From assembly GCA_029547605.1 (NCBI GenBank), contig JAKPPB010000003.1, forward strand, positions 36,212-100,211: 64,000 nucleotides of DNA, read 5' to 3'. This DNA comes from Methanobacteriota archaeon (GTDB lineage: Archaea > Halobacteriota > Methanomicrobia > Methanomicrobiales > Methanospirillaceae). The notes under the pieces were generated by a model. It did not search any database. It worked only from the letters and a program-made list of their open reading frames with translations, and was not told the DNA's origin. Position 1 is the stretch's first letter. Each line of letters starts with the position of its first letter. Of this stretch, positions 7,217 through 64,000 are shown in pieces. A program made the translations under genes and the position numbers.

Positions 7217-7351
7217 TTTCGGGGCTGCTTAAGAGTGTGGGGAGAAACCCGAAAAGGTTCATCGGGGGTGAAGTACCGGTAGAGTTCGCCCGATGAACAG
7301 GGCATGCCCGGAACATAAGCGAGCACACCCCCGCAACAAAGGGCAATGTGC

Positions 7352-7861: not shown

Positions 7862-7924
7862 GGAGATTCCATCTGCACATGAGGAAAAAAAGGTGTCTTC
7901 ATTGGGCAGCCCCGGTTGTGAGAG

Positions 7925-8959: not shown

Positions 8960-8981
8960 AAAAATTAGGACAGCCCTTTCC

Positions 8982-11514: not shown

Positions 11515-12645
11515 TCATTGGTAAGATGCGACTGTTTCAAAGATCTTCTCCCTGATTGCGGAGGGAGAGTGGCCAAGCAGGTATGCCATGAACATCGCCC
11601 CGCCTGCACCCATTCCCTCCTTGACTTCCCCTATGCAGTACCGCGCAAGGCCCGAGTGCCCGAGATCCCCGAATCCGGGATCAACGTATACCACTTCGGC
11701 CCCGATGTTGTGTGCAATCTCGGAAAAATTCGCGGACCTGTCATCCCTGACATAGACAGTCGTTGCGATCAGGGGGAGGGGAATGCCCATCGCCTTCATC
11801 ACTGCCGCCACGGCAAGCATCTGGGTGCCCCCTGCCAGCACCATCTGACGGGTGCAGGTGCTTCCCAATCCTGCACACAGGGCGATCATCGGGTCCCCGC
11901 AGCACCTTATGAGATCAAGAGGTGATCGATCACTCTCCGCTTCGATCCTGCGGGCAACCGCGTCCCATACCTCTTCCTTCATCCTGACAGGGTTCTCGAC
12001 GAAACTGGAGCTGACCCTCGCAGGGTACCCGAGCGAACGAAGGACACAGAGAGCCGTGGTGGTCCCCCCGGGGACACATTCGCCTACCACCAGCAGGTCG
12101 CACCACCGGGACAAAAATTCACCAAGTGAACGACCGGACTGGTAGAGCTCCCGTGCGAGTGGCACCGCGTCCATGAACCGGGGATCGTTCCCGGGCTCAC
12201 CATACACATCCATGCACGGGACAGTAGGGCGGAAAGAGAGCCCGGCATTGATGAACAGGGCTCCTGTCCCGCAGAGTTCCATGATGGAGCGGGTAATTGA
12301 CGCAGGAGTAGGACAGCCGGTAGGAGTGTCGGGCCTCGCCGGCATACTGGTGATCGAACCCCTCGCTATCAGTTCCGCATCGAGAATCGGAGTGAGCAGG
12401 GTCTTCTCCGGCGTGGGCCCGGCCCCCGAGATGCCCGGTACCACAGAGAGCATCGTATTTGCAAGGATGCTGCAGAATAGGGGGCGTTCTGCAGCGATAC
12501 CTGGATCTTTCGAGAGGAATGCCATGCACGCACTCTTCCTAACCATCGGTACTGTGGATCCATCAACATAGCGCTTGACCAGAATGAGTGGCAACCCTGA
12601 TAAACCCGGAAACGAGACCTGTGTGAGAAGAAGGATACCTGTCAT
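11515..12645 (-). CDS. cobT: archaeal-type nicotinate-nucleotide:dimethylbenzimidazole phosphoribosyltransferase (CobT-like, UPF0284/TIGR00303 family)
   Basis: 'FCSILANTMLSVVPGISGAGPTPE...' and 'GECVPGGTTTALCVL' are family-typical, and the gene sits next to cobS. The true start is probably an internal Met (about 12540), not 12645. Confidence 0.7.
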   Translation of the reverse strand: MTGILLLTQVSFPGLSGLPLILVKRYVDGSTVPMVRKSACMAFLSKDPGIAAERPLFCSILANTMLSVVPGISGAGPTPEKTLLTPILDAELIARGSITSMPARPDTPTGCPTPASITRSIMELCGTGALFINAGLSFRPTVPCMDVYGEPGNDPRFMDAVPLARELYQSGRSLGEFLSRWCDLLVVGECVPGGTTTALCVLRSLGYPARVSSSFVENPVRMKEEVWDAVARRIEAESDRSPLDLIRCCGDPMIALCAGLGSTCTRQMVLAGGTQMLAVAAVMKAMGIPLPLIATTVYVRDDRSANFSEIAHNIGAEVVYVDPGFGDLGHSGLARYCIGEVKEGMGAGGAMFMAYLLGHSPSAIREKIFETVASYQ

Positions 12646-13078
12646 GTTCGAGATCGGTGAACGGTTGCAACAGAAAGGAGCCGGGATGGAAGAGATTGTC
12701 GGCGCGGCAATGGAGCTCTATGTCCCCCACGGCGTCCCGGAAGGGGAGGCCCGGGAAATGATCAGGCGAATGATCGAGAAGTACATGGAGGACCCGAATG
12801 TCGCGTCCCTCCTCCTCGGTGCCATCCTGCTTGAAGACGAGCTCTACTGGAAACGCGCCAACTCGGAGATCAAGGACGACCCTGTCTTCCTCCTGTCTGA
12901 CGAGATAATAGGGATGGCGATCGCCGAGTGCATCGGCGGTACCTACGCCCGCTTCGAGTTCACCCGTTACGACCAGAAAAAGCCCGGCATTCTTGGCTCA
13001 CTCGGCCCTTTCCTCGACGATGCCGTGGCCGGCCTCATTGCCGGATGCACCTCCAGGTTTTACAGCGAATGCCACTGA
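12644..13078 (+). CDS. PgpA-family phosphatase domain protein (possible alpha-ribazole-phosphate phosphatase role)
   Basis: It carries the C-terminal 'LGPFLDDAVAGLIAG' PgpA-like DDxxAG motif and lies between cobT and cobS. The functional role is inferred from that context only. Confidence 0.55.
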   Translation: MFEIGERLQQKGAGMEEIVGAAMELYVPHGVPEGEAREMIRRMIEKYMEDPNVASLLLGAILLEDELYWKRANSEIKDDPVFLLSDEIIGMAIAECIGGTYARFEFTRYDQKKPGILGSLGPFLDDAVAGLIAGCTSRFYSECH

Positions 13079-13785
13079 CCTCAGTCATCTCACTGCTCCA
13101 GTTCACCACGGTCCTCCCGCTCGGAAGAACCCGCGATTTCTCCACGTTTGCGAGGCGATCGTGGATTTACCCCATTGCGGGATATGTGGTGGGGGGAATT
13201 GCCGCTGCTGCGGTCTTCTTCATCGGCCAGCCGCTCATTGCCGGCGCCGTTGCCCTTGGGCTCCTCTACCTCCTGACCGGGTGCAACCACCTCGACGGCC
13301 TCATGGATTTTGGCGACGGGCTGATGGCGCATGGGGACAGGGAGAGGAGACTGAGGGCGCTTTCCGACCGGCAGATCGGCACAGGCGGGATGGCGATGGC
13401 AATTGTCATGTCGATTATCTCTTTCTCGTCGCTCGCGTCGGCCCCATGCCTCCCCTGTGCCATTGTAATCGCCGAGGTGGGTGGAAAATTTTCGATGGCG
13501 TTTCTCTCGACGTTCGGAAAACCCTTCCGTGAAGGGCTCCACTCGTCAATCCAGTCCCATTCAAAGCCATATTTCCCGGTCCTCGCCGCCATGCTGTGCA
13601 CTCCGCTCGTGCTCCTCCCCATCGCCCCGATCTCCCTTGCAATGTCGGCCGTCCTGATGATCGCCTGCCCTGCTACCCTCCTCGCCGTCTCGAACAGGCT
13701 CTTTGGAGGAGTGAACGGGGACGTGACGGGGGCCAGCAACGAGATCACGAGGGCTGCGATCCTTGCCGTGCTCTGCCTGATCTAG
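13069..13785 (+). CDS. cobS: adenosylcobinamide-GDP ribazoletransferase (cobalamin 5'-phosphate synthase)
   Basis: 'MPLTSVISLLQFTTVLPLG' and 'NHLDGLMDFGDGL' are CobS signatures, and the protein is polytopic. The start is taken at ATG 13069. The longer ORF from 12928 is an out-of-context, Arg-rich extension. Confidence 0.85.
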   Translation: MPLTSVISLLQFTTVLPLGRTRDFSTFARRSWIYPIAGYVVGGIAAAAVFFIGQPLIAGAVALGLLYLLTGCNHLDGLMDFGDGLMAHGDRERRLRALSDRQIGTGGMAMAIVMSIISFSSLASAPCLPCAIVIAEVGGKFSMAFLSTFGKPFREGLHSSIQSHSKPYFPVLAAMLCTPLVLLPIAPISLAMSAVLMIACPATLLAVSNRLFGGVNGDVTGASNEITRAAILAVLCLI

Positions 13786-39953: not shown

Positions 39954-40448
39954 ATGAGCGGGCCAAGGACACTCACCATCGGGATCACGGTGAACCTGGA
40001 GCACTACGAGAACCTCCGCCTTGAAGTGAACGGGGAGGTGAAGGACCTGGGGGATGCCCGCGACCTTGCCAGGTTTCTCTCCGACGTGCTCGGGACCTAC
40101 GGTCGCGGCGACCCGGCAACTGCCGAGAGGATAGAGAGCTTCCGCCGACGTGTCCTCCCTCATGCCGGCGGGCAGCACGACCTGGTCCCAGAAATTCCCG
40201 GAAGGGGGGGGGAGGGCGTGACGGCATGCGCCGCGCCTGTCTCATCGCCCGCTCAGGCAGAAGAGACCGCGGTACCATCTCCCGCGCCGCCCATCCCCCC
40301 CTCACCAGTCCCTGCAGATGAGAAGGGGCCCGGACCAGGGGCCATAACCTGCGAGGAATGCGGTGCACCAATGAACATGGCGGAGCAGAAGATGAGTATG
40401 CTCTTTGCAAGCAGGGTCCTGTGCAGGAAATGCCTCAAAAAGGTATGA
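39954..40448 (+). CDS. hypothetical protein with Pro-rich linker and C-terminal zinc-ribbon
   Basis: 164 aa with the C-terminal 'CEECGAPMN...CRKC'. I recognise no family. Confidence 0.45.
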   Translation: MSGPRTLTIGITVNLEHYENLRLEVNGEVKDLGDARDLARFLSDVLGTYGRGDPATAERIESFRRRVLPHAGGQHDLVPEIPGRGGEGVTACAAPVSSPAQAEETAVPSPAPPIPPSPVPADEKGPGPGAITCEECGAPMNMAEQKMSMLFASRVLCRKCLKKV

Positions 40449-40491
40449 CGAGGGGGATCGCGTTGAACCGGATACAGAAGGTGTTGCCCTG

Positions 40492-41616
40492 GTGAAAAAG
40501 AACCTCCTGATGTGGGATGAGACCCTCTTTCGTGACCCGGAGGTGTTTGAGATCGATTACGTCCCCGAGCAGTTCAATTTCCGGGAGACACAGATGCGCG
40601 AGCTCGCGTTCCAGATCAGGCCGGGACTGCGGGGAGGCCGGCCCCTCAACACCATCTGCCGCGGCCTCCCCGGGACGGGCAAGACCACCAGCGTGAAGAA
40701 GCTCTTTGCAGAGATAGAGGAGACCACGAAGAGACTCGTCCCCATCCATGTCAACTGCCAGATCGACAACACCAAGTTCGCCATATTCTCCCAGATCTAC
40801 CGGAGGCTCTCGGGCCATCTGCCCCCCTCGTCAGGGACTTCTTTCAAGCAGGTCTTCGATGCGATCGCGAGGATCCTTGCAAAGGAGGAGCAGGTACTTC
40901 TGGTGGCACTCGATGACGCCAACTATCTCCTCTACGAGAACGAGATAAACAAGGTGCTCTACACGCTCCTCCGCTCTCACGAGGCGTATCCCGGGACGAG
41001 AGTGGGAGTGATCATGATCGTCAGCGACATGGACGTGGACATCGCGCGGGAGGTTGATGCGCGGGTATCCTCGGTCTTCCGCCCGACAGAGATCTACTTC
41101 CCTCCCTACACGATGGAGGAGGTAAAAAGCATCATCAGCGAACGGGTGATGCAGGGGCTCTACCCAGGATGCCTGCCGCCCCCAATGTTCGATCTCGTGG
41201 TCGAGCAGACCCAGAAGAGCGGGGACCTGAGAGTGGGAGTCGACCTGCTGAAACGGGCCGCACTGAACGCAGAGAAGCGGGCAAGCCGGGTGATCGAGAC
41301 GGAGGACATCTGCGGTGCCTACAAAGTTTCGCGCTACCTTCACCTGGCATACTCGGTGAAGTCCCTCAAGGCAGAGGAGAAAGCCCTGCTCCTCACACTT
41401 GCCACCCATGCCGGCGAAGGAGGGGAAATGAATGCAGGGGAGGTCTACAAGGCGGTAAAAGATGAGTCCGGAGTCGGCTACACACGCTTCTACGAGATAG
41501 TCAAAAAGTTCGACGCGATGCGACTCGTGAACCTGGAATACCGCGACGGGAAAGGCCGCACGAGGGTGATCAGCCTGAGATACGACCCGGCAAGAATAAT
41601 TGAATATCTCTCCTGA
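40492..41616 (+). CDS. cdc6: Orc1/Cdc6 replication initiator
   Basis: 'LFRDPEVFEIDYVPEQFNFRETQMREL', Walker A 'GLPGTGKTT', Walker B 'LVALDDANYL' and a C-terminal winged-helix region are present. GTG 40492 is chosen as the start by N-terminal length. ATG alternatives are at 40405 and 40510. Confidence 0.9.
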   Translation: MKKNLLMWDETLFRDPEVFEIDYVPEQFNFRETQMRELAFQIRPGLRGGRPLNTICRGLPGTGKTTSVKKLFAEIEETTKRLVPIHVNCQIDNTKFAIFSQIYRRLSGHLPPSSGTSFKQVFDAIARILAKEEQVLLVALDDANYLLYENEINKVLYTLLRSHEAYPGTRVGVIMIVSDMDVDIAREVDARVSSVFRPTEIYFPPYTMEEVKSIISERVMQGLYPGCLPPPMFDLVVEQTQKSGDLRVGVDLLKRAALNAEKRASRVIETEDICGAYKVSRYLHLAYSVKSLKAEEKALLLTLATHAGEGGEMNAGEVYKAVKDESGVGYTRFYEIVKKFDAMRLVNLEYRDGKGRTRVISLRYDPARIIEYLS

Positions 41617-41670: not shown

Positions 41671-42636
41671 ATGGTAAAGGGGGTACTCCACGTGCTCAGT
41701 GTAAACGAACTTGCTTTAGAGATTTTTGAAAACCTGGCGGAATACGCCGAAGAATTCAACGCTGCATACCATGAACTTGATAACGGCGCACGGATCATCG
41801 ATTGCGGGGTAAGCACCCGGGGAGGGTATGCGGCCGGCCGCGCCTTCACCGAGATCTGCATGGGAGGACTTGGAGAGGTCAATTTCAGGATGGCCAACAT
41901 CAAGGATTTCCCTATTCCTTTCATCGATGTGTTCACAGACTTTCCCTCCATCTCCTGCCTCGGCGCACAGAAAGCAGGATGGACGATCAAGCACAACAAC
42001 TACTTCGCCATGGGCAGTGGTCCTGCGAGGGCTCTCCCCCTCAAGCCCAAGCACACCTACGAAGTGATCGAGTATGAGGACGACTTTGACTCGGCTGTCA
42101 TCGCCCTCGAGAGCGACCACCTTCCCAACGGAGAGGTCATGGAGAAGATCGCAGAGGACTGTCATATCGACGTGAGCAACGTCTGCGCCGTGGTTGCCCC
42201 GACGGCCTCAATCGTGGGTTCCATACAGGTCGCCGGTCGTTGCGTGGAAACTGCCATATACAAGCTGAACGAGCTCCACTTTGACACCCGTAAGGTCGTC
42301 GCGGCATTCGGATGCGCACCCCTTCCCCCGGTCCGGGGCCCAAAGCTCGCGATGGGTGTGACAAACGACGCCACCATCTACCATGGAAGGATCATGCTGA
42401 CAATAAAGGCACCCGAGATCAAGGACTACCTTGAGAAGATCCCAAGCAACAAGTCGAAGGGGTACGGAAAGCCCTTCAACGAGATCTTCAAGGAGGCAGG
42501 ATATGACTTCTACAAGATCGATACATCCCTCTTTTCCCCCGCCGAAGTCGTGATCAACGAGATCTCACAAGGCGTGGTCTACCACTGCGGCGCCGTAAAC
42601 CCTGACGTGACGCTCAAGTCGTTCGGGCTTATCTAA
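41671..42636 (+). CDS. mch: methenyltetrahydromethanopterin cyclohydrolase
   Basis: 'LSVNELALEIFENL...ARIIDCGV...GGYAAG..FTEICMGGLG' and the 321-aa length fit Mch. Confidence 0.9.
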   Translation: MVKGVLHVLSVNELALEIFENLAEYAEEFNAAYHELDNGARIIDCGVSTRGGYAAGRAFTEICMGGLGEVNFRMANIKDFPIPFIDVFTDFPSISCLGAQKAGWTIKHNNYFAMGSGPARALPLKPKHTYEVIEYEDDFDSAVIALESDHLPNGEVMEKIAEDCHIDVSNVCAVVAPTASIVGSIQVAGRCVETAIYKLNELHFDTRKVVAAFGCAPLPPVRGPKLAMGVTNDATIYHGRIMLTIKAPEIKDYLEKIPSNKSKGYGKPFNEIFKEAGYDFYKIDTSLFSPAEVVINEISQGVVYHCGAVNPDVTLKSFGLI

Positions 42637-43606: not shown

Positions 43607-43981
43607 TCATCCTTCCACTAGTCTCTCATCGTTTGCCTGCCACTTCGGCGCAACAATGCAGAGGAAAATGAGATCCTCACGACCGGTATTCCGGATATAC
43701 TGCCTGGAACCCGGCGGTATCATGACTATCTGCCCTCTCTGGACTGTTGAACACTCGTTCTCGATATGCATCTCTCCATGCCCGCTCAGGATGTAATAGA
43801 GTTCAGTGGATTTCTTCAGCACGTGCGGAAGGGATTCCTCTCCTACCGGGACGATGGCGTGAGCAATGCTGCATGGAAGGCCTGATGCTCCTGGAACCTT
43901 GTCAGGATGTAAGAGTTCGCAAAGCATTGTCCGGTCAAGGACGCGTTCATGGGGGCAGTTGGTTATATCACGGATGATCAA
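43607..43981 (-). CDS. cupin-domain protein
   Basis: 124 aa with 'HVLKKSTELYYILSGHGEMHIE' and 'IPPGSRQYIRNTG', which are cupin motifs 1 and 2. Confidence 0.65.
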   Translation of the reverse strand: MIIRDITNCPHERVLDRTMLCELLHPDKVPGASGLPCSIAHAIVPVGEESLPHVLKKSTELYYILSGHGEMHIENECSTVQRGQIVMIPPGSRQYIRNTGREDLIFLCIVAPKWQANDERLVEG

Positions 43982-44313
43982 GGGATTTCACCACCATGTG
44001 ATAGTTATTCCATCCCTCTGAAACTATTGATAATAGCACTATTTTCCTCCCTTATCATGGAGGAATGGGAAGATGGATGTGCCACCGGTCCATAAATGTG
44101 GAGTCCTCCCCGGATCCTGCTCACTGAATGGCATTTTTTTTACAATGAAATCCTATTCGCCACCGAAACGTGACTTTCCATCAACTGTATCCCTTTCGAT
44201 CGTTGGTGAATCTTGATGCCGGCGGCATTTGCAGGACATTTTTCCCGGGGCAAATCGGTTCAAATCCGATGGATGAGTTTAATACCCACACCGTTGAATC
44301 TTTCTGGCAAATC

Positions 44314-44387
44314 GGGCCCGTGGTCTAGTCGGTTATGACGTCGCCCTTACACGGCGGAGGTCGCCGGTTCGAATCCGGCCGGGCCCA
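44314..44387 (+). tRNA. tRNA-Val (anticodon UAC)
   Basis: The cloverleaf was folded by hand. The acceptor is GGGCCCG/CGGGCCC, the D-arm GTC..GAC, the anticodon stem TCGCC/GGCGG with loop CT-TAC-AC, and the T-arm GCCGG-TTCGAAT-CCGGC with discriminator A. No CCA is encoded, and a T5 run follows 8 nt downstream. Confidence 0.9.
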
Positions 44388-44491
44388 CTGGAATATTTTT
44401 CATCTCCCCTTCGTTACGTGTGCTGAAAACAAACGGGGAATATACTGATGGATAATCAGTCAGAAAACAGCCTTGTATCAATGATTATTTA

Positions 44492-44679
44492 GGCCCTTCG
44501 CTATCTGGTGTGGGTAGGATTGGTGAACCGGACACATATTGTGGGGCTATCCGCCCCCACACCCTCACATGCGATGCACGCCGCCGCCCCGGAAGGACCC
44601 CCGGCGGCGGTTCAGTGACTGAATTGATATGCAGATAACACCCTGGATTCAGCCTCCCCACACAAAACAGCGAGGAGGC
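44492..44679 (+). mobile_element. MITE-like element, copy B (8-bp target-site duplication ATTATTTA)
   Basis: ATTATTTA at 44484-44491 and at 44680-44687 directly flanks the element. By hand alignment it is about 93% identical to copy C. The TIRs match at 18 of 23 positions (GGCCCTTCGCTATCTGGTGTGGG versus reverse complement GCCTCCTCGCTGTTTTGTGTGGG). Confidence 0.8.
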
Positions 44680-45590
44680 ATTATTTAAGAACCAGGAGTT
44701 CGCGGGAGGAAGCCCTGTGCAGGGGTAGCGTTATATACGATATAACATATCTGCGCGAAGTCCCAGGGTTATATCGGGTCTTCTCTCTCATCTCCTATGC
44801 AGGACTCCATTCAGATGTTCCCATGCCGGGGCATAGCGATACCAGGTAATAAAAGGAGATGATTGCCTTGCCCCATCTACTCCATGACTGGCAATACCTT
44901 GTGGCTGCACCAATTGTCAGACACCTCTCAGTCGCCTCTTCAATGCACTCCTTATGACAATCCTTAAATAGTAGAAACTGCGGCACCACACAGTTTTTCA
45001 TGAAAAAAAAGTCCCCGATTATGCGTTCCATGGAGAATCGGTCTCCTCACTCTGCCTGAAATGATGAGAAGAGCGAATTTTGGCGTTCGTAAAAATCCCA
45101 ATTAAATTGCTTTTTTATTGTTTTTAAACCCAGAATAAGGTTTTTTGCACTTGAATGACCATAAGGCTCCCGATTGGCGATTCGGTCGTAAAGCGTCAGA
45201 CGCGTGCCAAAAGCGACCCGAAATAATCACTTTGAACGATGTAATTTATATACAAGAAGATGAAATGGATTTTTTGGTGCACCGTTCAGCGGGCGACGCC
45301 TGCCTGAAAAAGCACTATACAATCAAGGTGGCATCAATATAGGCAGTACTCCAGGCTTTCCATTGCGGGGCGCTTCTCGGTACACCAGAATGAGATATCA
45401 CATTGTGATAAAAAAGGTATCGGATCGCATCGGGCAGCCCGCCCCGGTGCAATCCAGGTCATGCGACGATTGCACCTTTTTTGAGAAATAATCCCTGTAT
45501 TGCCATTCCTTTGGGGATCCTCCCTTTCCTGCCGGCTCGTAATGAAGGTTCACCGGAGGAGAGGGGACGTAAGAGGGTGACCCTCTCACA

Positions 45591-46169
45591 TCACTTCTTT
45601 ACGATCTCTTCCAGTGTGATCGTGAAGACGAGGTCCTTTCCTGCCAGGGGATGGTTCTGGTCGATGGTGGTTGATTGCTCGGAAATATTGTAAAAAGTGT
45701 AGTGCACGACGATATTGCCGGGAAACGTATATTCAAAGACCGGCTCCATCCCCGGGAAGAGACGGACGCGGCTCGTTCCCATCCTGTCCAGGTTCTGGAT
45801 GAACGCCAGTGCGGTGGCGGTATCGACTTCTCTCACCAATGTCTCGTTCCTGAGCCCGTACCCGTCCTCCGGAGAGACCGTCACAGTCTTTGTTTCACCC
45901 GGATGCATCCCGATCAATGCCTGGTCGAACCCCCGGATGACAGTCCCGTCACCGACTGTAAACTCCAGTGGGGTTCCATTCAGGTTGCCCTCGAATGGTT
46001 GAGTTCCGGGAAAAGAGACCGTGTAATAGACATGAACGGTATCTCCCCTCGCTACCCCTGAAGTGGTGCTGCACCCTGCACCAAGCACAAGAAACAGTAC
46101 AATGCAAAATGCGGCCGCGGTGAGAGGGCGTCCTCCCGGTCCTCTCACGGGGCGATCTAATCTCCTCAT
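45591..46169 (-). CDS. FKBP-type peptidyl-prolyl cis-trans isomerase with lipobox-type signal peptide
   Basis: The start is taken at 'MRRLDRPVRG...AAAFCIVLFLVLGAGCSTTSG' (lipobox LGAGC). The FKBP core is 'GDTVHVYYTVSF...FEFTVGDGTVIRGFDQALIGMHPGETK' with the end 'HPLAGKDLVFTITLEEI'. The 116-aa upstream extension in the track is not supported. Confidence 0.85.
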   Translation of the reverse strand: MRRLDRPVRGPGGRPLTAAAFCIVLFLVLGAGCSTTSGVARGDTVHVYYTVSFPGTQPFEGNLNGTPLEFTVGDGTVIRGFDQALIGMHPGETKTVTVSPEDGYGLRNETLVREVDTATALAFIQNLDRMGTSRVRLFPGMEPVFEYTFPGNIVVHYTFYNISEQSTTIDQNHPLAGKDLVFTITLEEIVKK

Positions 46170-46350
46170 ATCCTCTCCGGTTGCACCTGATCCGCCATAA
46201 TTCCTGCGGGGTCTCCCCAACGAGCGCCTGCTCGATCGCTGGGACATTCTGGAAAAAACGGCCAAGGCATTCCTGAATCGAATTGTATTTATCATGCCAA
46301 CCCTCACAATTAACAAAACGCGCCGCATGGAATGGCGCGGGGAGAGAAAG

Positions 46351-47244
46351 ATGGCAGAGAATGAATACAAGGTCGCCGATGTGGCGGGGAAGAAGGTACA
46401 GTGGGACCCTGAACAGCTCCGTAAGATACGCGAACACCCCTGCTTCTCGGAGAAGGCCTGCCATGCATTCGGGCGTTGCCACGTGCCAGTCGCACCGAAA
46501 TGTAACATCCAGTGCAATTATTGCGTAAGGGATTTTGACTGCGTGAACGAAAGCCGCCCGGGAGTCACCTCAAAGGTGCTCAATCCACAGGAGGCAGTAG
46601 AACTGGTCCGCGAGGCAATCCAGAAGTTCCCGTACATCAAGGTTGTCGGGATCGCCGGCCCCGGTGAGCCGCTTGCAAACGAAAGGACTTTTGAAACGCT
46701 CCGCCTCCTGAAGGAAGAGTTTCCAAACGTCATCAAGTGCCTGAGCACGAACGGACTTCTCCTGCCCGACAAGATTGACCTGCTCCACAAATACGATGTG
46801 GGAAACCTTACCGTCACCCTCAACGCAATCGATCCCGAGATCGGTGCAAAGATTTACCAGTTCGTGGACTACGGGGGAAAACGGTACGAGGGTGTGGAGG
46901 GTGCGAAGATACTCCTTGAGAACCAGCTGAAGGGAATAGAGATGGCAATCGCGCGCAAGATGATCGTGAAGATCAACACAGTCTACATCCCCGGCATCAA
47001 TGACACCCATATCCCAGAAATTGCGAAAAAAGCAGGGGAGATGGGAGTATACAATTTCAATGTGATCCCTCTCATCGCCCAGTACCGGTTCGCCGACATC
47101 GCGCCTCCGACACCAGAGATGAAGAGGAAGATGCAGGACGAATGCTCAAAGTACGTCCGCCAGATGAGGCACTGCCAGCGCTGCAGGTCAGATGCAATCG
47201 GCCGGCTGGGCCAGGACGTCCAGTCCTGCCTCTATCACGATTAA
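46351..47244 (+). CDS. nifB: NifB-like radical-SAM protein (short archaeal form, no NifX-like C-domain)
   Basis: 'HPCFSEKACHAFGRCHVPVAPKCNIQCNYCVRDFDCVNESRPGVTS' carries the CxxxCxxC plus NifB-specific N-terminal Cys/His. 'GIAGPGEPLAN' and 'LSTNGLLL' are present, along with the C-terminal 'CQRCRSDAIG'. Confidence 0.8.
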   Translation: MAENEYKVADVAGKKVQWDPEQLRKIREHPCFSEKACHAFGRCHVPVAPKCNIQCNYCVRDFDCVNESRPGVTSKVLNPQEAVELVREAIQKFPYIKVVGIAGPGEPLANERTFETLRLLKEEFPNVIKCLSTNGLLLPDKIDLLHKYDVGNLTVTLNAIDPEIGAKIYQFVDYGGKRYEGVEGAKILLENQLKGIEMAIARKMIVKINTVYIPGINDTHIPEIAKKAGEMGVYNFNVIPLIAQYRFADIAPPTPEMKRKMQDECSKYVRQMRHCQRCRSDAIGRLGQDVQSCLYHD

Positions 47245-57294: not shown

Positions 57295-57504
57295 TGTATA
57301 CTCATTTGCAGAGAGCGTTCATAATATCATGCAGCGCTCTGGTATGCCTTAAGAAATGGAAATGGCAGAAAGTGGAGGTCTTGATCACTCTTATAGAATA
57401 CCAAGGAGCGAATCTCAAATTCTTATACGAACAATATTATGCCTTCAATTTCATTTTTACGCCTGATTTGTCCGGCGCGAGGGGAACCAGCAATCACTGT
57501 CTAT

Positions 57505-57537
57505 GCAATACCTATGTAATACCTTCGTAATACTTTT
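57505..57537. promoter_or_regulatory. three tandem, helically phased 11-nt repeats (GCAATACCTAT / GTAATACCTTC / GTAATACTTTT) in the AT-rich leader of the 57.7-kb module
   Basis: AATAC(C/T) recurs at 57507, 57518 and 57529, an exact 11-nt period. The repeats lie 131-163 nt upstream of the radical-SAM ATG. The surrounding 370 nt are visibly AT-richer than the rest of the window. Confidence 0.45.
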
Positions 57538-57667
57538 TTGGGAAAATACGGCCGCAGAGAGAAGGACTTATACCATGCCGGCAGGAAACCTCTCTTTTCA
57601 TGATTCAGGGGGAGGCAAAAATGCGGGAATGGAGTGACCATCCCGGCTCCTGCGGGGTGCAGTTCGG

Positions 57668-58252
57668 ATGATCAATTGTGCCGGGTTTCTTGAGCGGTCA
57701 GGGGTGAATGGCCCCGGGCTCCGGGCGGTAGTCTGGGTCCAGGGCTGCCCCCTCAGGTGCCGGGGCTGCTTCAACCGGGACCTGTGGTCATTTGGGAAAA
57801 AGTGGCTCGTCAAAGAGGATGAACTGGCGGCACGCATCCTCGCAGTCCCTGGAATAGGAGGAGTCACGTTTTCAGGAGGTGAGCCGTTCTGCCAGGCAGC
57901 CCCCCTTGCAGTTCTCGGGAGGATGGTCCGCGAGTCGGGGATGTCAGTAGTCACGTTCAGCGGGTATCCCGCAGAGACGCTCCTGTCAAGCCGCAGAAAG
58001 GACTGGAGGGCGCTCCTGGAAGAGACCGACCTCCTCGTCGGAGGGCCCTTTTTCCGTGAATGCCGCACTCCGTCTTCGCTCTGCGCCTCCGCAAACCAGG
58101 AGATGGTCTCCCTCTCGGGAAGGATCACGCAGGGTCATGGAGGAGAAGAAGGGGGGACCGGTGTCGAGTTTACCATCGGACCCGGTGGCGAAGTGACCAC
58201 CACCGGGTTCCCGGAGAGGGAGATTCTCTTCTGCGGGCGGAGGTGTGCCTGA
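57668..58252 (+). CDS. NrdG/PflA-type radical-SAM activating-enzyme homologue (orphan: no glycyl-radical partner in window)
   Basis: 'SGVNGPGLRAVVWVQGCPLRCRGCFNRDLW' is the GCxxxCxGCxN cluster motif and 'GGVTFSGGEPF' is the SAM motif. 194 aa. An SD-like GGGGTG lies 8 nt upstream. Confidence 0.75.
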   Translation: MINCAGFLERSGVNGPGLRAVVWVQGCPLRCRGCFNRDLWSFGKKWLVKEDELAARILAVPGIGGVTFSGGEPFCQAAPLAVLGRMVRESGMSVVTFSGYPAETLLSSRRKDWRALLEETDLLVGGPFFRECRTPSSLCASANQEMVSLSGRITQGHGGEEGGTGVEFTIGPGGEVTTTGFPEREILFCGRRCA

Positions 58253-58255
58253 CCC

Positions 58256-58651
58256 ATGTCGCATTTTTCACGGGTGAAGACAGCCTTCAGGGACCGTTCA
58301 GTCCTTGCACAGTGCCTGGAGGAGATGGGCTACCAGGTCGAATGCGGGGGATCCGTCAGAGGATACCACGGTGTGCATCAGGTCGACCTGGCAGTTGCAG
58401 GACGGGATGGGTTCGGCGTGGGGTTCGTCCAGAACACCGACGGGTGCTACGACCTCCTTGCAGACTCGTGGGGAGTGAAGGGTGCGGACAGGAAGGTCCT
58501 TGAGAGATTGCGCCGGGACTATCCCCGCCTCCAGCAGGAATACGCAAGGAGGATGGTCCACGAGCAGGCCGTGCGTGAGGGCTACACCATGGTCGAAGAG
58601 GTGACGCAGGAGGACGGCAGTATCCGCATCGTGGTAAGGAGGTGGGCATGA
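58256..58651 (+). CDS. DUF1257 (Ycf35-like) protein
   Basis: 131 aa. 'MSHFSRVKTAFRDRSVLAQCLEEMGYQVE' and '...YDLLADSWG' match my memory of the DUF1257 N-terminal pattern. It starts 3 nt after the upstream stop, with SD GGAGGTG 10 nt upstream. Confidence 0.6.
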   Translation: MSHFSRVKTAFRDRSVLAQCLEEMGYQVECGGSVRGYHGVHQVDLAVAGRDGFGVGFVQNTDGCYDLLADSWGVKGADRKVLERLRRDYPRLQQEYARRMVHEQAVREGYTMVEEVTQEDGSIRIVVRRWA

Positions 58652-60216
58652 GTCCCGTGGGCGGAGAGCAGGACATCCCATCCCAGATCGACCTCTGCCT
58701 CCGGGCACGCATCACACTCCTCATCCTGCATACCGCGGAGGAGGAGAGGGCGATGCGCATGCTGCAGGACGTCTGCAGCCGTTTCTCCCCGAAAAGACCT
58801 TTTTTGGCCTGGGACATTGCGGAAGGGTTCTCAGGGGCAGGATATGGAGCAGGCAGGGGATCTCCTGCGAGAGACCCGCTCGTTGCCCTTGAAGAGATCG
58901 AGAAGACCGATGAGGCGGCCGTCATCGTGCTCAAGGATTTCCACGAGTTCTGGGGAAACCCCGGTGTGAAACGAAGGCTCCGGAACCTTGCCCAGAAGTT
59001 GCGGTTTACCCGGAGGACGATGGTGGTGGTAACTCCTTCTCTGAAGGTGCCTGATGAGATACGCGACGACGCCGTGGTGCTCCACGTGCCGCCGCCGTCT
59101 GCGAGGGAGCTTGAGCAGGAACTCGACCGGCTGCTGCGGGGGAGCGGGGTCGGCGATTCACTCACTCCCCTCGGTCGTGAGAAGTTGATACAGGCCGCGC
59201 TCGGGATGTCCCTCAACCAGGCATGCAGGTCGTTTGCGAAGGCGATCGTCCGTCACGGACGGCTCGATGACCGCGATATCGATGCCGTGGTCTCGGAGAA
59301 GAAAGACATCCTCTCCCAGAGCGAGGCCCTCGAGTTCTACAGCGCCACAGAGGCCGCGGAGAACGTGGGAGGCCTTGCGGTGCTCAAGGAGTGGCTCCGC
59401 CTCAGGGAGCGGGCCTTTTCACGCGAGGCGAGGGAATACGGGCTGCCTTCCCCCAAGGGCATCGCGCTGATTGGCATCCCCGGGACAGGAAAGAGCCTCA
59501 CGGCCAAGATGATTGCCGGGATGTGGAGGCTCCCGCTGCTCCGTCTCGACGTGGGAGCGCTCTTTGGGAGTTATGTGGGGGAGTCCGAGGAGCGGACGCG
59601 CCGCGCCCTTGCACTCGCCGAGACTATCTCTCCCTGCATCCTCTGGATCGACGAGATGGAGAAGGCGTTCTCCTTTGGAAACGGGGACTCGGGGACCAGC
59701 CAGCGGGTCTTCGCGAGCATCCTCACCTGGATGCAGGACAAGACCTCGCCCTGTTTCGTGGTGGCGACGGCCAACGACATCTCGGCACTCCCCCCCGAGC
59801 TCCTCCGCAAGGGTCGCTTTGACGAAGTGTTCTTCCTCGACCTCCCTTCCGTCGCGGAGCGCAGGGAGATCTTCTCGGTCCACCTGCGGAGGAGGGGACT
59901 TCTTCCGGACGATTTCGACCTGGATCACCTTGCGAGAGCGTCTGATGGGTACGTGGGTGCCGAGATCGAGCAGACAGTCATCGATGCCATGTACCACGCG
60001 TTCAACCAGGAGATGCGGCGGGTTTGCACTGGAGATATCCTCGCCGCGCTGGGTGCACAGGTGCCACTCTCGATCTCCCAGAAGGAGATCATCGGCGGAC
60101 TCCGGCAGTGGCTGACCGAGGGCAGGGCGCTCTCGGCATCCCCGCCATCGTCTCCTGCCGGCGTCTTGGGGGGTTCGATATGCCTTGAGCCTGTTCTCTC
60201 TCCCGGCGAACGGTGA
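58648..60216 (+). CDS. Ycf46-like AAA+ ATPase (classical-clade AAA module with about 250-aa N-domain)
   Basis: Motifs present are Walker A 'GIPGTGKSL', Walker B '[11 protein letters not shown]', sensor-1 'VVATAND' and the Arg-finger region '[16 protein letters not shown]'. ATG 58648 forms an ATGA overlap with the DUF1257 stop and is preceded by AAGGAGGTG. Confidence 0.8.
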
Positions 60217-60223
60217 ATCATCC

Positions 60224-63076
60224 ATGCCCTCATTGGAACGGATGCTGGGGGGGATCTCATGCCGCGCACCCCTTTTCGGGAGGTTCATAAGGTCCTCTGC
60301 GGCAATGCAGCTGGCCACCGCTGCCAGGGAAGGAGACCACAGGGCTGTCCTCGCCCTCTGCCAAGCACTTTCCGGATCACCCTACCCTGAAGTGAAGAGA
60401 TTGGCCAGAGAATGTCTCACTTCGCTCGTTGCGCGTGAGGCGATCGACGCGCTTTGCGACCGCGTGATCGTGGACGGAGACCCCTGCCTCACACGCATCG
60501 CACTGGAACAGGGATACCTGCCCTGCAGCAAGGAGAAGCAGGCGCTCTTTTACTTCCTCTCCGGGCAGGCAGAGGCATGGCTTGAGCTCGACCCTCTCGA
60601 GTCTCATCCGCTCCTGACAAAGGCACTCATCGGTGCTTCAGCCCATGTCCGTGCCAGGGCGCTCGCTGCTGCCAGGGAGAAAGGGATGGTCAGTCTCTAT
60701 TGCGCCCTCGCGCGCCGTCCCGAGGCCATGGGGTGGTCACCTGAAGACTGGAGAGCTCACATGGAAGGATGCCGGAGAGAGAGTCAATGGGATGAGATCT
60801 ATGCGCTCCTCTTCCTCGCACCGATCGAGATTGTGGTCGAAGCGGTGCACGTCCTCCGTCTATCCGGGTGGAGGCCACCTGAGGGAGACCTCCCGCTCTG
60901 GAAGGACCTGCTCGCCCTGGTCCCGGACCGGTGGGAATACCCTGACCCGCCGCAGCCTCGACAAGGCGCACTTTCTGGTCCTGCCGGAAGGATCGATGAC
61001 GCCGTATTGTCTCCTGACGGAGCGCACCTTGCGACACTGAACTGCGACGGCACCCTGTGCCAGTGGTCCCTCCCACAGGGTATGCTCCTCTCGTCTGGCA
61101 GACCGGCGGGCGGCAGCGCCACGGCGATCGCATGCAGTCCGGACGGCCGTGCCCTCGCAATCGGGGCAGCGGACGGGTCAATCAGCATCGTAGAAATCGG
61201 GAGCGGCGCTCACATCCGCGAACTGCAGGCGCATGGCGCACCCGTCACGTCGGTTGCCTTTGCTGCCGGGAACAAAACCCTGTGCTCGGGAGGAAGTGAT
61301 GGGTCTGTCTGTTCATGGAACTGGCCGGAATGCAGTGGCGAGCACCGGAGGAGTGTCCATCGCGGAGCAGTCACGGCCGTTGCAGCCCACAGTGAGATGA
61401 TTGCTTCCGGCTGCAGGGATGGGACGGCAGCGATATGGAGAAATGGCGGGCATTACATCGAGATCGCGGGAACCGGGGATGCCATCCGGGGACTCGTCTT
61501 CTGCTGTGGTGGCGCGATCCTCGCAGGGATTGACGAGAGTGGGACATTTTATGCCTGGAATTCCGTCGACGGTACGCTCCGCACCCTCGTGCCGACCACT
61601 CCACGCCGGTTCATTGCATGGTGCGCTGTTCCTGGCGGCAATTTCGCTGCACTTGCCACAGATGACCACGCTGCTGTCCTGATCTCGCTCAGTTCCGGTG
61701 AGGTGGTGAGCCGCCTCGAGGTTCCGGGGCAGGGGATCACGTCCCTTGCACTCCACCCGGACGCAGACTTCATCATTGCGGGATGCCGCGACGGCTACCT
61801 CCACACATGGTCCCTCCGGGAGAGAGAGAGGGTCCAGGTGAGGAAGGCCCACGAAGGAATGGTCCGGCTTCTCGAAGTCGACAGGGCGGGGACGCGGGTG
61901 ACCAGTGCCGGGTGGGATGGGACCGCCAGGCTGTGGGCGCTCCCATCAGGTGAGCTGCTGACGATCATGCGGGGGCCCGGCGCTCCGATCCATTGCCTTG
62001 CATCCACCCCCGGAGGAGAGCTCATTGCCTGCGGGTGTGAGGGCGGCGTGCTCACGGTATGGGAGACGGGGACGCGGAAACTGGTGCATACGCTCAACCT
62101 CTTCTGCGGAAGGATCGAGTCCCTCGCGCTCCACCCTTCGGGAACCATGGCCGTGTGCGGCGATCAGGATGGCAGGGTCTCTCTCTGGGACCTTGTTACA
62201 GGGTCGTTACGCGCAACCCTTGACGGGCACGCAGGAAGGGTCCATGCCCTTGCAATCAACCGTGACGGGACTCTCCTCGCAAGCGGAGGCTGGGACGGCG
62301 CGGTCCGCCTCTGGTCACTTCCCGCAGGAGAGCCGGTCACCTCGCTCGGGGGACACGAGAGCCCGGTCACCTCGCTTGCGTTCTCGCCTTCCGGCACGTT
62401 CCTGGTGAGCGGTTCCCATGACCGGACCGCAATTGTATGGGACCTGAGATCGGGGGAGATGCATGCCCGCATGATAGGGCATTCGCACGTGGTCTCATGC
62501 CTCGGGATCACGGGGGACGGGAGGGTCCTTGCAACCGGGAGCTGGGATCGGACCATCAGGCTGTGGAGCATGCCCTCAGGCGAACCGCTGAAGACGATCC
62601 CGGGCCATGCGGGGAGAGTCCGTTCACTCTCGGTGCACCCCGACGGAAGTCTTCTCGCAAGCGCAGTCGATGGCGGAACATTCTCCCTCATCTCGCTTTC
62701 GGGAGGCAGACTCATCCGCACCCGCGTGGTCAGCGCCGACGCCCGCAATGGCATCTGCCTGCTCCCCTCCCAACACATGATGGCGGCTGCGGGCAGGGAC
62801 GGGTCACTCAGACTCTTTGGGATCCCCTGGACGAGGCCGATGTGCCAGACCACCCCTGCGGATATCGCGTACGTCCAGTCCTGCATCACGCGGGAACTCG
62901 CTCCAGGGCAGGCCGGGCAGTGGAAGTTCCTCGAGCGCCTCCTTGCAGGAAAGTTCCGCCTGAGCATCGCGTATGGCGGTTCGGGGATGCCTGCCGGACC
63001 GTACGATATTGAGATCATCGAAGAGCCGGATATCAGCGGGATGACCAGGAACGGGGTGAGTCTCCATGCCATGTAG
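60224..63076 (+). CDS. large WD40-repeat protein (N-terminal helical-repeat region plus about 14-15 WD40 units, i.e. two beta-propellers)
   Basis: Repeats were counted by eye, e.g. 'SGGSDGSVCSWNW', 'SAGWDGTARLWAL', 'SGGWDGAVRLWSL', 'SGSHDRTAIVWDL' and 'TGSWDRTIRLWSM'. The N-terminal about 270 aa are helical and HEAT/ARM-like. The first ATG is 7 nt after the AAA+ stop, and the track's TTG start is at 60185. Confidence 0.85.
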   Translation: MPSLERMLGGISCRAPLFGRFIRSSAAMQLATAAREGDHRAVLALCQALSGSPYPEVKRLARECLTSLVAREAIDALCDRVIVDGDPCLTRIALEQGYLPCSKEKQALFYFLSGQAEAWLELDPLESHPLLTKALIGASAHVRARALAAAREKGMVSLYCALARRPEAMGWSPEDWRAHMEGCRRESQWDEIYALLFLAPIEIVVEAVHVLRLSGWRPPEGDLPLWKDLLALVPDRWEYPDPPQPRQGALSGPAGRIDDAVLSPDGAHLATLNCDGTLCQWSLPQGMLLSSGRPAGGSATAIACSPDGRALAIGAADGSISIVEIGSGAHIRELQAHGAPVTSVAFAAGNKTLCSGGSDGSVCSWNWPECSGEHRRSVHRGAVTAVAAHSEMIASGCRDGTAAIWRNGGHYIEIAGTGDAIRGLVFCCGGAILAGIDESGTFYAWNSVDGTLRTLVPTTPRRFIAWCAVPGGNFAALATDDHAAVLISLSSGEVVSRLEVPGQGITSLALHPDADFIIAGCRDGYLHTWSLRERERVQVRKAHEGMVRLLEVDRAGTRVTSAGWDGTARLWALPSGELLTIMRGPGAPIHCLASTPGGELIACGCEGGVLTVWETGTRKLVHTLNLFCGRIESLALHPSGTMAVCGDQDGRVSLWDLVTGSLRATLDGHAGRVHALAINRDGTLLASGGWDGAVRLWSLPAGEPVTSLGGHESPVTSLAFSPSGTFLVSGSHDRTAIVWDLRSGEMHARMIGHSHVVSCLGITGDGRVLATGSWDRTIRLWSMPSGEPLKTIPGHAGRVRSLSVHPDGSLLASAVDGGTFSLISLSGGRLIRTRVVSADARNGICLLPSQHMMAAAGRDGSLRLFGIPWTRPMCQTTPADIAYVQSCITRELAPGQAGQWKFLERLLAGKFRLSIAYGGSGMPAGPYDIEIIEEPDISGMTRNGVSLHAM

Positions 63077-64000
63077 GGTCGCGGTCGATTTCGGCACTTC
63101 TAACACGGTGCTTGCCTGCTGGGACTATTCCCTCGGCTCTGCCCGGGTGCTCGAGATCCTCCGGTGGTCCCGCCCATGCAGAGACGGACAGGGCAGCATG
63201 GCACAGATCCCCTCACTCATCCATTACGGGGAGAGCGGGACGAGGTGGATAGGGCAGCAGGTAAACGACCTTGACCTGCTTGACTCCCCCGGGACGGTCC
63301 GCTGGATGAAGCACTACATCTCCACGCGGAGCCCTGTCAGGGTGCCGCTCCCCGGAGGGAGCAGGAGTTACATGGAGGCGGGTGCCGATTTCCTCGGGGC
63401 TGTCCTCTCAACGCTCCCGGAAGCGGCGGGCGATGGGGAGATCGAGGCAGTCTTTCCGGTGCCGGTGGAGTCATTTGAGCATTACCAGGACTGGGTGATC
63501 TCCCTTGCCGGTTCTGCGGGGATTGGGAAGGTACGGGTCGTGGATGAGGCGACCGCGGCTGCGGTAGCATCGGGCATTGCACTTGGGCCCGGGGAGGTGT
63601 TCATGCTCTTTGATATGGGGGGCGGGACACTCGATGTCTCGGTGGTCCGCCTCGACGAGATGGAGCCCGGCCAGGGCCGCCGTTGCAGGGTGCTTGGAAA
63701 AGCGGGTGAGGATCTCGGCGGGATGCGCATGGACCAGTGGATCTTCGAAGATATCTGCGAGAGGTTCGGGCCCGCCTTTGGTGGACGGGAAGGAAAGACG
63801 CTCACGCGCCCCCTTCTCTCTGCCTGCGAGCGTGCAAAGGAGATGCTCTCCCTCCAGAATGAGACTGAGATCTCCGTCGGTATTTTATCCGGCGGGGGAC
63901 AGGAATTCTCGACTCCCTACACAAGGGACGAGTTCGAGGGGCTGCTGGAGAGAAGAGGGGTCTTTCCCCGCCTGAACGCCACAATACAGAGAGCGCTCCA
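63066..64000 (+). CDS. non-canonical Hsp70/DnaK-superfamily ATPase, N-terminal part (runs off the window; absent from the supplied ORF track)
   Basis: My own translation from ATG 63066 is open to base 64000: MPCRVAVDFGTSNTVLACW... Motifs are 'VDEATAAAVA' and 'MLFDMGGGTLDVSVV' (phosphate-2) and 'GEDLGGMRMDQWI'. It overlaps the WD40 gene stop by 11 nt. An SD-like GGGGTGA lies 6 nt upstream. Confidence 0.8.
   Translation, partial: MPCRVAVDFGTSNTVLACWDYSLGSARVLEILRWSRPCRDGQGSMAQIPSLIHYGESGTRWIGQQVNDLDLLDSPGTVRWMKHYISTRSPVRVPLPGGSRSYMEAGADFLGAVLSTLPEAAGDGEIEAVFPVPVESFEHYQDWVISLAGSAGIGKVRVVDEATAAAVASGIALGPGEVFMLFDMGGGTLDVSVVRLDEMEPGQGRRCRVLGKAGEDLGGMRMDQWIFEDICERFGPAFGGREGKTLTRPLLSACERAKEMLSLQNETEISVGILSGGGQEFSTPYTRDEFEGLLERRGVFPRLNATIQRAL

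Follow-up and report, generated by a model that had tools for sequence, protein, structure and literature searches.

The window analysed here, 64,000 nucleotides of contig JAKPPB010000003.1 from a Methanobacteriota archaeon, ends within a six-gene operon that encodes a radical S-adenosylmethionine (radical-SAM) enzyme, a DUF1257 protein, an AAA+ ATPase, a WD40 scaffold, an Hsp70-like protein and a DUF2997 protein. Homologues of these genes are co-localised in the 80 loci that were fetched for relatives of the Hsp70-like protein, and these loci span at least 10 phyla-level groups in addition to the Methanoregulaceae. The result is a conserved module with its own domain anatomy, intact catalytic motifs, a non-canonical status and an ordinary chromosomal context. 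It shows the defining features of no known system that we tested, and in our assessment it is a multi-component system of a new kind. From the domains of its proteins and from their gene neighbourhoods, we tentatively suggest, at somewhat less than an even chance, that it is an ATP-driven protein-remodelling machine built around the DUF1257-DUF2997 pair and not an NLR-like sensor.

A six-gene operon

The open reading frames (ORFs) and the junctions between them were read straight from the ORF table and the raw sequence, and agree with the first-pass annotation of this DNA (Table 1). In the order radical-SAM, DUF1257, AAA+, WD40 and Hsp70, the five same-strand genes in the window are separated by +3, -4 (ATGA), +7 and -11 nucleotides, and the -4 and -11 junctions imply translational coupling. 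Pfam profiles recovered all of the families named for these five proteins (radical SAM/Fer4_12, DUF1257, AAA, WD40 and HSP70), and WD40 families only for the scaffold, which had been described as having no NTPase of its own.

The annotation had also left the module open at the window edge, correctly as it turned out. To read past position 64000 we used NCBI contig DAOSPE010000016.1 (hereafter L001; metagenome-assembled genome GCA_035374505.1), which encodes the exact WD40 protein of the window and whose first base corresponds to approximately window position 45306. A contig from JGI carries an identical Hsp70 fragment (P0001). In L001 the Hsp70-like gene is complete at 530 residues and is followed after 4 nucleotides by a DUF2997 gene, the true start of which is probably at position 14449, as judged from a Shine-Dalgarno (SD) box and the family consensus. 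Since DUF2997 is followed by a spacer of ~480 nucleotides and a convergent apurinic/apyrimidinic (AP) endonuclease gene, the operon consists of six genes, five of which lie within the window. The extension had been proposed as a check for J-domain or GrpE-like genes; neither a J-domain/DnaJ gene nor a GrpE gene is present in the six-gene operon or after Hsp70 in L001.

Table 1. Features of the operon; positions are those of the window unless L001 is named
Feature	Position	Strand	Description
Spacer	57295-57667		373 nucleotides, between divergent endA and the radical-SAM gene
Radical-SAM gene, NrdG-like 'activase'	57668-58252	+	194 residues; Pfam Fer4_12 (4e-29) and Radical_SAM
DUF1257 (Ycf35 family) gene	58256-58651	+	131 residues; Pfam DUF1257 (3e-19)
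AAA+ ATPase gene, Ycf46-type	58648-60216	+	522 residues; Pfam AAA (8e-30) and AAA_lid_3
WD40 scaffold gene	60224-63076	+	950 residues; Pfam WD40 (5e-83); without an NTPase domain
N-terminal helical-repeat (HEAT-like) region of the WD40 protein	60224-60988	+	multiple matches to bacterial module proteins
WD40 beta-propeller region and tail	60989-63076	+	propeller at residues ~257-870 (~610 residues)
Hsp70-like gene	63066 to beyond 64000	+	first 311 of 530 codons in the window; Pfam HSP70 (5e-22)
DUF2997 gene (sixth gene)	L001 14449-14670, beyond the window		probable start; Pfam 2e-17

The AT-rich leader of about 370 nucleotides that had been noted ahead of the first gene has a guanine-plus-cytosine (GC) content of 45%, compared to 63% in the module genes. 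This spacer is presumably the site of the promoter and the 5' leader, and an Rfam scan of it found no riboswitch or small-RNA family above noise. Four of the five starts in the window are preceded by the SD-like boxes GGGGTG, GGAGGTG, GGAGGTG and GGGGTGA, on a strand where such motifs occur at a background of ~1.7 per kb. The WD40 start had been singled out as the exception, but is only partly so, with a partial box (GGTGA) 8 nucleotides upstream.

Conservation of the gene set across archaea and bacteria

The Hsp70-like protein served as the marker for the module. One genome per GTDB species was scanned with two family-specific peptides, yielding 159 relatives; 80 loci were fetched from these, and their six-frame ORFs were searched with the window proteins and with hidden Markov models built from the matches. 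All six families were found in 34 of the 45 loci with full flanks. These comprise all nine loci from Methanoregulaceae, each with DUF1257, DUF2997, WD40, AAA and radical-SAM genes and none with a GrpE-like gene, and 25 of the 36 bacterial loci, where DUF1257, DUF2997 and WD40 were each present in 35, AAA in 30, radical-SAM in 28 and a GrpE-like gene in 19.

The gene order is not constant. Methanolinea and the Methanoregulaceae have rSAM-DUF1257-AAA-WD40-Hsp70-DUF2997, where rSAM is the radical-SAM gene. Most bacteria, mainly Anaerolineae and other Chloroflexota, have AAA-WD40(x1-2)-[GrpE-like]-Hsp70-DUF1257-DUF2997-rSAM-[WD40], and a few others, among them Thermaerobacter and a planctomycete, have DUF1257-DUF2997-rSAM-AAA-WD40-GrpE-Hsp70. 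Thus, of the neighbourhood properties that had been put up for checking, co-localisation and a patchy distribution were found, the latter enriched in filamentous or aggregate-forming lineages, but a single order was not. The persistence of one gene set despite this reshuffling argues strongly for a functional module. A neighbourhood-wide family search found no further family common to all loci, and the extra genes reflect lineage-specific synteny.

Median identity between the window proteins and their bacterial orthologues is 63% for AAA+, 49% for DUF2997, 44% for Hsp70, 37% for the radical-SAM enzyme and 32% for DUF1257. Within the archaea, the six genes recur on contigs from Methanoregula at an identical site, flanked by endA-trpS-pheST on one side and the AP endonuclease gene on the other, and neighbour-joining places every Hsp70-like protein of the Methanoregulaceae in a single clade that is separate from the bacteria. 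The site shared by Methanolinea and Methanoregula, together with this single archaeal clade, points to a module that is old and vertically inherited in the family, and to no mobile island; the earlier view that it is not a recent import therefore holds. In cyanobacteria, none of the five loci that keep DUF1257 and DUF2997 has a radical-SAM gene. One Pleurocapsales locus (L082) is interrupted at 8461-9768 and 12459-13185, between the GrpE-like and Hsp70 genes and 3' of DUF2997, by small toxin-antitoxin-like genes of the DUF559, HTH_37 and Gp49 types.

The AAA+ ATPase

Residues ~240-470 of the AAA+ protein match the classic-clade ATPases p97, NVL, VAT and PAN in sequence. In an AlphaFold2 model (predicted local distance difference test score, pLDDT, 77; predicted template modelling score, pTM, 0.56), residues ~10-225 fold into another alpha/beta domain of the AAA type, lid included, which resembles D1 and precedes a D2 domain at ~240-490. 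Foldseek aligned the whole chain to the D1-D2 tandems of p97, Rix7, NVL, Pex1/6 and AFG2, and for the first four the alignments covered 550-590 columns (TMq 0.46-0.59, E ~1e-20 to 1e-22). The model is consistent with a p97-like tandem in which D1 is degenerate and dead and D2 is intact. An invariant T-x-E-E-E-R takes the place of the D1 P-loop, and LKDFH[E/D] stands at the Walker-B position of this domain. In D2, no aligned orthologue deviates at the residues of Walker A and B, sensor 1 and the Arg finger, R-K-G-R is likewise invariant, and pore loop 1 is [L/F/Y]-V-G. The chain starts directly with D1 and has no N-terminal adaptor-binding domain. Of the two intact chaperone-type NTPases that the first-pass annotation had described, the Hsp70 ATPase and the D2 motifs stand, but D1 is dead, a feature that had been overlooked together with DUF2997 and the bacterial GrpE-like gene.

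The label 'Ycf46' for this protein is a COG-level name only (COG0464; 'SpoVK/Ycf46/Vps4 family' in JGI annotation). In a Phormidiaceae cyanobacterium (L025 2099-5746), the dead D1-like domain is joined to a long protein of HEAT repeats that has no ATPase domain, and at L036 6785-8551 a short D1-like piece is fused to a HEAT/WD40 protein; these fusions may be domain-shuffled variants or artefacts of assembly or frameshift. Phages of Rhizobium, Agrobacterium, Aeromonas and Pseudomonas, as well as mycobacteriophages, encode AAA+ proteins that are 38-43% identical to that of the window over 59-76% of its length (H19-H38).

A lid-less Hsp70 and its GrpE-like neighbour

The Hsp70-like proteins form a tight family of ~530 residues with ~45% identity across phyla, and an alignment of orthologues shows conservation of the phosphate-1 and phosphate-2, adenosine and catalytic motifs. 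Towards the C-terminus, the last third of the protein aligns to the beta part of the substrate-binding domain (SBD) of Hsc70, and the chain ends right after the equivalent of Hsc70 residues 461-497. As read from these alignments, the protein is a nucleotide-binding domain plus SBD-beta that lacks the helical lid (SBD-alpha). The interdomain linker of DnaK is the hydrophobic VLLLDV; at this position our reading of the alignment places a conserved DHIQHDYA.

That the gene is not the canonical dnaK, as had been proposed, agrees with the missing lid, with the lack of an adjoining dnaJ or grpE in the archaeal operon, and with a score of 110.6 bits against a cut-off of 822.55 for the DnaK equivalog model TIGR02350; the HscA equivalog model TIGR01991 gives 108 bits against 708. 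In bacteria, a gene of 180 residues directly upstream of Hsp70 matches Pfam GrpE over nearly its full length (29.9 against a threshold of 25.8). It is present in 45 of 81 loci and in no archaeal one.

We considered a glycyl-radical site in the invariant Hsp70 segment 'RCRVLGKAG' (RVLGK) and rejected it, since the segment aligns to the normal Hsp70 strand 'EVKSTAGD'. It is equally conserved in loci without a radical-SAM gene, and more likely marks a remodelled hairpin, in the region where J-domains dock on DnaK. In Methanoregula, the Hsp70-like genes lie at L086 12368-13999, L087 12422-13999 and L088 12379-14010; the protein has diverged to the point where two of these three loci have lost the precomputed Pfam HSP70 match, leaving only a faint MreB_Mbl match, and the position in the module is kept.

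The HEAT/WD40 scaffold

The N-terminal regions of bacterial module proteins match the corresponding part of the window scaffold several times over, indicating internal repeats, and the bacterial scaffolds carry Pfam HEAT_2. The remainder gives seven Pfam WD40 stretches along with matches to many propeller families, and the length of this region would fit two 7-bladed propellers. A C-terminal tail of ~90 residues is conserved mainly in archaea, with strong scores in archaeal loci only and two marginal matches in bacteria. Individual loci contain between 0 and 5 WD40 genes. The platform is dispensable, since a viral contig, described below, carries the module without it.

DUF1257 and DUF2997

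DUF1257 and DUF2997 are adjacent in almost every cellular locus. The DUF1257 family comprises 1853 clusters at 50% identity, nearly all of them stand-alone proteins of ~130 residues beginning M-S-H, and we found no informative domain fusion among these clusters. Its invariant residues are M1-S2-H3, T9, G56, D70, Y96-A97 and R128. The AlphaFold2 model (pLDDT 85) matched no fold in the PDB, the best E value being 0.3. Two candidate relationships were rejected: kinship to BMC-H, where a profile E value of 0.003 came from two weak stretches and no PDB fold matched, and a PD-(D/E)xK nuclease, for which Foldseek matches of 32-34 residues (probability 0.57-0.66) and one JGI name were not significant. 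The only oddities were a tandem duplication preceded by a hydrophobic leader at the N-terminus, a copy whose leader makes it resemble a targeted precursor, and what is probably a miscalled start. Besides the copy adjoining DUF2997, the bacterial loci L020, L030, L034 and L081 (e.g. L081 5838-6251) contain a second DUF1257 paralogue that has diverged; it lies between two WD40 genes in L034 and between AAA+ and WD40 in the other three. DUF2997 is characterised by an invariant G-x-x-G-x-x-C loop, with one invariant cysteine, ahead of a helix, and its profile found no match in the PDB.

The radical-SAM enzyme

The radical-SAM enzyme scores 81.8 bits with the NrdG model TIGR02491 (cut-off 126.1) and 64.4 with PflA (cut-off 231.75). 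Invariant in 20 orthologues are NGPGxR, C27x3C31x2C34, GGEP and GSxN[KQ]. The same subfamily is found in the module in 56 loci, in both domains of life and across the shuffled orders. No ORF of at least 120 residues in the window contains a PS00850-like glycyl-radical motif (RVxG[YFW]), in agreement with the earlier statement that this activase has no glycyl-radical enzyme nearby. A candidate glycyl-radical site in DUF1257, 'SVRGYHG', was also discarded: the glycine is replaced by serine in some orthologues and the neighbouring residues vary.

Phages, cyanobacteria and plastids

The ycf35 (DUF1257), DUF2997 and Ycf46 genes, termed 'hypothetical chloroplast reading frames', are maintained in cyanobacteria, in plastids of the red lineage and in T4-like cyanophages, and have resisted functional assignment for decades. 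We found most of the module on a viral contig, IMGVR_UViG_3300028603_002755 from IMG/VR (L089), which is 48 kb long, has 32% GC and encodes a phage-type polymerase, an NAD-dependent ligase and a CCA-adding enzyme among its genes. At 7075-11275 it carries a compact DUF1257-rSAM-Hsp70-AAA-DUF2997 set, five of the six families, without WD40; its Hsp70 is only 28% identical to that of the window. Of 80 other IMG/VR viral loci (L090-L169), 77 have the DUF2997-DUF1257 pair alone, which in one case (L115 7774-8375) lies just upstream of the baseplate genes gp25/gp6. Overlapping DUF2997 and DUF1257 genes occur in the T4-like cyanophages (Kyanoviridae) P-SSM2 (PSSM2_178/179), P-SSM5 and P-SSM7. In P-SSM2 (NC_006883.2, L170) the pair is at 2802-3381, and an annotated ferredoxin gene lies three genes upstream. 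In the cyanophages, these two genes look like an auxiliary pair that has gone unrecognised. PHROGs families exist for the AAA+ protein (phrog_8638, 3e-142), DUF1257 and DUF2997.

In cyanobacteria, a DUF2997-ycf35-fed7 cluster has been described in a review of ferredoxins (PMC4284462), and expression of the ycf46 operon of S. elongatus rises under severe oxidative stress, in darkness and with ppGpp (bioRxiv 10.1101/2025.07.21.665879). Both ycf35 and ycf46 are preferentially missing from freshwater red-algal plastid genomes (PMC5940233).

Comparison with known systems

The module had been put forward as having a composition not described for any pathway or defence system, and we found nothing to contradict this. 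Our literature searches brought up no paper that connects DUF1257, DUF2997 or Ycf46 with an Hsp70, a GrpE, a WD40 protein or a radical-SAM enzyme, and neither NCBIfam nor PADLOC has a model for the whole module.

The module shares with the DnaK-GrpE-ClpB bi-chaperone an Hsp70 whose beta domain binds peptides, an exchange factor of the GrpE type (in bacteria) and a ring AAA+ protein, all encoded together, an arrangement that makes cooperative ATP-driven remodelling plausible. However, its AAA+ protein belongs to the classic (p97/FtsH/PAN) clade, lacks the M-domain of ClpB and has a dead first tier; no ClpB was among the matches listed in our sequence and fold searches, the best of which were p97, NVL and PAN. 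Furthermore, the module has no J-protein, neither the lid nor the hydrophobic linker is present in its Hsp70, and a radical-SAM enzyme, WD40 scaffolds and the two DUF proteins come on top. The tandem D1-D2 fold and the separate repeat-protein adaptors recall Cdc48/p97, Pex1-Pex6 and Rix7/NVL, and Pex1/6 likewise has one catalytically silent tier. In contrast to the Cdc48/p97 type, the module AAA+ protein is only 522 residues long, with no double-psi barrel N-domain and no ubiquitin-type adaptor, its D1 P-loop is fully lost and its pore loop is mostly Leu-Val-Gly.

The Ycf46/Ycf35/DUF2997 sets of cyanobacteria and red-lineage plastids have in common with the module Pfam DUF1257 and DUF2997 and a COG0464 AAA+ protein of ~500 residues. 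As published, these are sets of two or three genes of unknown function with no link to a lid-less Hsp70, a GrpE-like protein, WD40 or radical-SAM, and the presence in archaea and Chloroflexota is likewise outside the published accounts. The radical-SAM enzyme resembles the NrdG/PflA activases in its Cx3Cx2C motif, N-terminal GPGxR, GGE(P) and small size, the C-terminal GSxN[KQ] being NrdG-like, but it falls below every equivalog cut-off and is always embedded in the chaperone module.

Multi-gene NTPase systems with an Hsp70, sometimes a GrpE, and repeat proteins have been described as conflict systems enriched in multicellular prokaryotes (Kaur, Burroughs, Iyer & Aravind 2020; PMC7159879). Whereas those systems contain TRAFAC GTPases, tubulin or MoxR-vWA together with effectors, the module has none of these, and DUF1257, DUF2997 and the module AAA+ protein go unmentioned in that work. 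A search of PADLOC 2.0 gave only generic matches to IetA (AAA) and to repeat models and a marginal pVip match on the radical-SAM enzyme (E 0.001), with nothing for Hsp70, DUF1257 or DUF2997. The module contains no NACHT or NB-ARC domain, and its neighbourhoods hold no effector family.

A tentative model for the module and its alternatives

Given that the AAA+ protein resembles a p97-like ring with one live tier, that the Hsp70 would be peptide-binding and is joined in bacteria by an exchange factor, and that the repeat platforms are exchangeable, we lean, short of even confidence, towards a protein-remodelling machine, an option that the first-pass annotation had also raised and that fits the anatomy of the module. 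In this model the AAA+ protein would form a p97-like ring, with the dead D1 tier as a docking site for partners and the live D2 tier as the motor that pulls or unfolds a polypeptide. The beta-sandwich domain of the Hsp70 would grip extended segments while cycling nucleotide, aided by GrpE in bacteria, and a non-J partner would stand in for DnaJ. The HEAT/WD40 protein would act as an exchangeable assembly or substrate platform, and the purpose of the machine would lie in DUF1257-DUF2997, its specific adaptor or client. In anaerobes, the radical-SAM enzyme would place a radical or a radical-derived modification on a module protein. We believe that such a machine serves a cellular function, probably one linked to stress or redox.

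Several observations weigh against this proposal. With the hydrophobic linker of the Hsp70 replaced and no J-protein gene found in any locus examined, classic Hsp70 allostery may not apply. Pore loop 1 of the AAA+ protein has leucine in place of an aromatic residue in most orthologues, so that threading is not assured, and the AlphaFold2 model is of medium confidence only. The fold of DUF1257 yielded no functional lead, a BFVD search returning one unnamed viral homologue only. The search for a substrate of the radical-SAM enzyme, by motif look-alikes and by comparison of loci with and without its gene, gave nothing; no conserved residue in Hsp70, AAA+, DUF1257 or DUF2997 separates the two groups of loci, and in cyanobacteria and cyanophages DUF1257-DUF2997 persists although the radical-SAM gene is missing. 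A more far-reaching version, which we consider unlikely, is a radical-coupled chaperone system common to archaea, bacteria and phages, of which plastid ycf35/ycf46 would be a remnant. Here the NrdG-type enzyme would mark DUF1257-DUF2997, the Hsp70 or the AAA+ protein with an O2-sensitive protein radical or a radical-derived modification, and the mark would gate the p97-like unfoldase and a J-protein-independent, lid-less Hsp70 as a remodelling switch triggered by redox or oxygen.

The main alternative is an Fe-S or redox pathway, in which DUF1257-DUF2997 would be a redox or Fe-S scaffold or sensor and the Hsp70, acting as HscA does on IscU, would with the AAA+ protein load, repair or regulate a 4Fe-4S partner, namely the radical-SAM enzyme in anaerobes and the ferredoxin Fed7 in cyanobacteria. 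The cyanobacterial DUF2997-ycf35-fed7 cluster (PMC4284462), the ferredoxin gene near the pair in P-SSM2 and the 4Fe-4S radical-SAM gene that abuts the pair in anaerobes all speak for it, as do the invariant cysteine of DUF2997 after its Gly-rich loop, the invariant His3 of DUF1257 and the fact that HscA models score the Hsp70 about equally to DnaK models. However, no locus contains a cysteine desulfurase, IscU/SufU or an HscB-type J-protein, nor did any neighbourhood examined have an HscB/IscU equivalent, the pair has one invariant cysteine only, the Hsp70 is 600 bits under the HscA cut-off, and the WD40 platform and the p97-like unfoldase are left unexplained. We find this pathway doubtful.

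A role in conflict or defence, with WD40/HEAT arrays sensing an invader, the NTPases as a threshold switch and the radical-SAM enzyme making a toxic or signalling product, is close to the STAND/NLR-like sensing that the first-pass annotation had considered, and we regard it as improbable. The variable number and diverged sequences of the WD40 genes, the patchy distribution with its enrichment in filamentous or aggregate-forming lineages, the generic IetA/IteA matches of the AAA domain and the Gp49, HTH_37 and DUF559 genes interspersed in one cyanobacterial locus would suit such a role, but there is no nuclease, protease, TIR or pore-former effector and no STAND NTPase, and PADLOC has no match for Hsp70, DUF1257 or DUF2997. 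Moreover, the core is strongly conserved, with the AAA+ identity given above holding across domains, the chromosomal site between aminoacyl-tRNA synthetase/endA and housekeeping genes is fixed in two genera, one phage carries a module without WD40 and cyanophages carry the small pair, and plastid-encoded homologues exist. The fixed housekeeping site, the strongly conserved core, the plastid and phage homologues and the missing effector are also our reasons for believing that the module is not an immune sensor. That there is no system at all, the activase being the NrdG of the organism and the other genes chance neighbours, is scarcely credible. NrdG is indeed the best model match for the radical-SAM enzyme, but its score is sub-threshold (81.8 against 126), the subfamily recurs in the module in both domains and in shuffled orders, the overlapping junctions imply translational coupling, and the co-localisation counts come close to refuting the idea.

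If the module is real as a system, it would represent a new Hsp70-AAA+ architecture without a J-protein, with its own exchange factor and tied to radical-SAM chemistry, and would provide a multi-protein context for ycf35 (DUF1257), DUF2997 and Ycf46. The Methanoregulaceae would then have an Hsp70-type system separate from dnaK. As there are cultured carriers, Anaerolinea thermolimosa and Longilinea arvoryzae among them, and as genetically tractable cyanobacteria are available, its function is directly testable.

Neighbouring genes

The operon is flanked by ordinary methanogen chromosome. To its left are endA, trpS and pheST and, further left, genes for S-adenosylhomocysteine hydrolase, OGG, mch and orc1/cdc6; the Orc1/Cdc6 gene is at 40405-41616 and mch at 41671-42636. 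GC content falls to ~50% at 43-46 kb, around a tRNA-Val gene (44314-44388), and there are no direct or inverted repeats of at least 14 nucleotides in 43900-45700 and thus no evidence of an origin there. Another radical-SAM gene, unrelated to that of the module, is located at 46294-47244.

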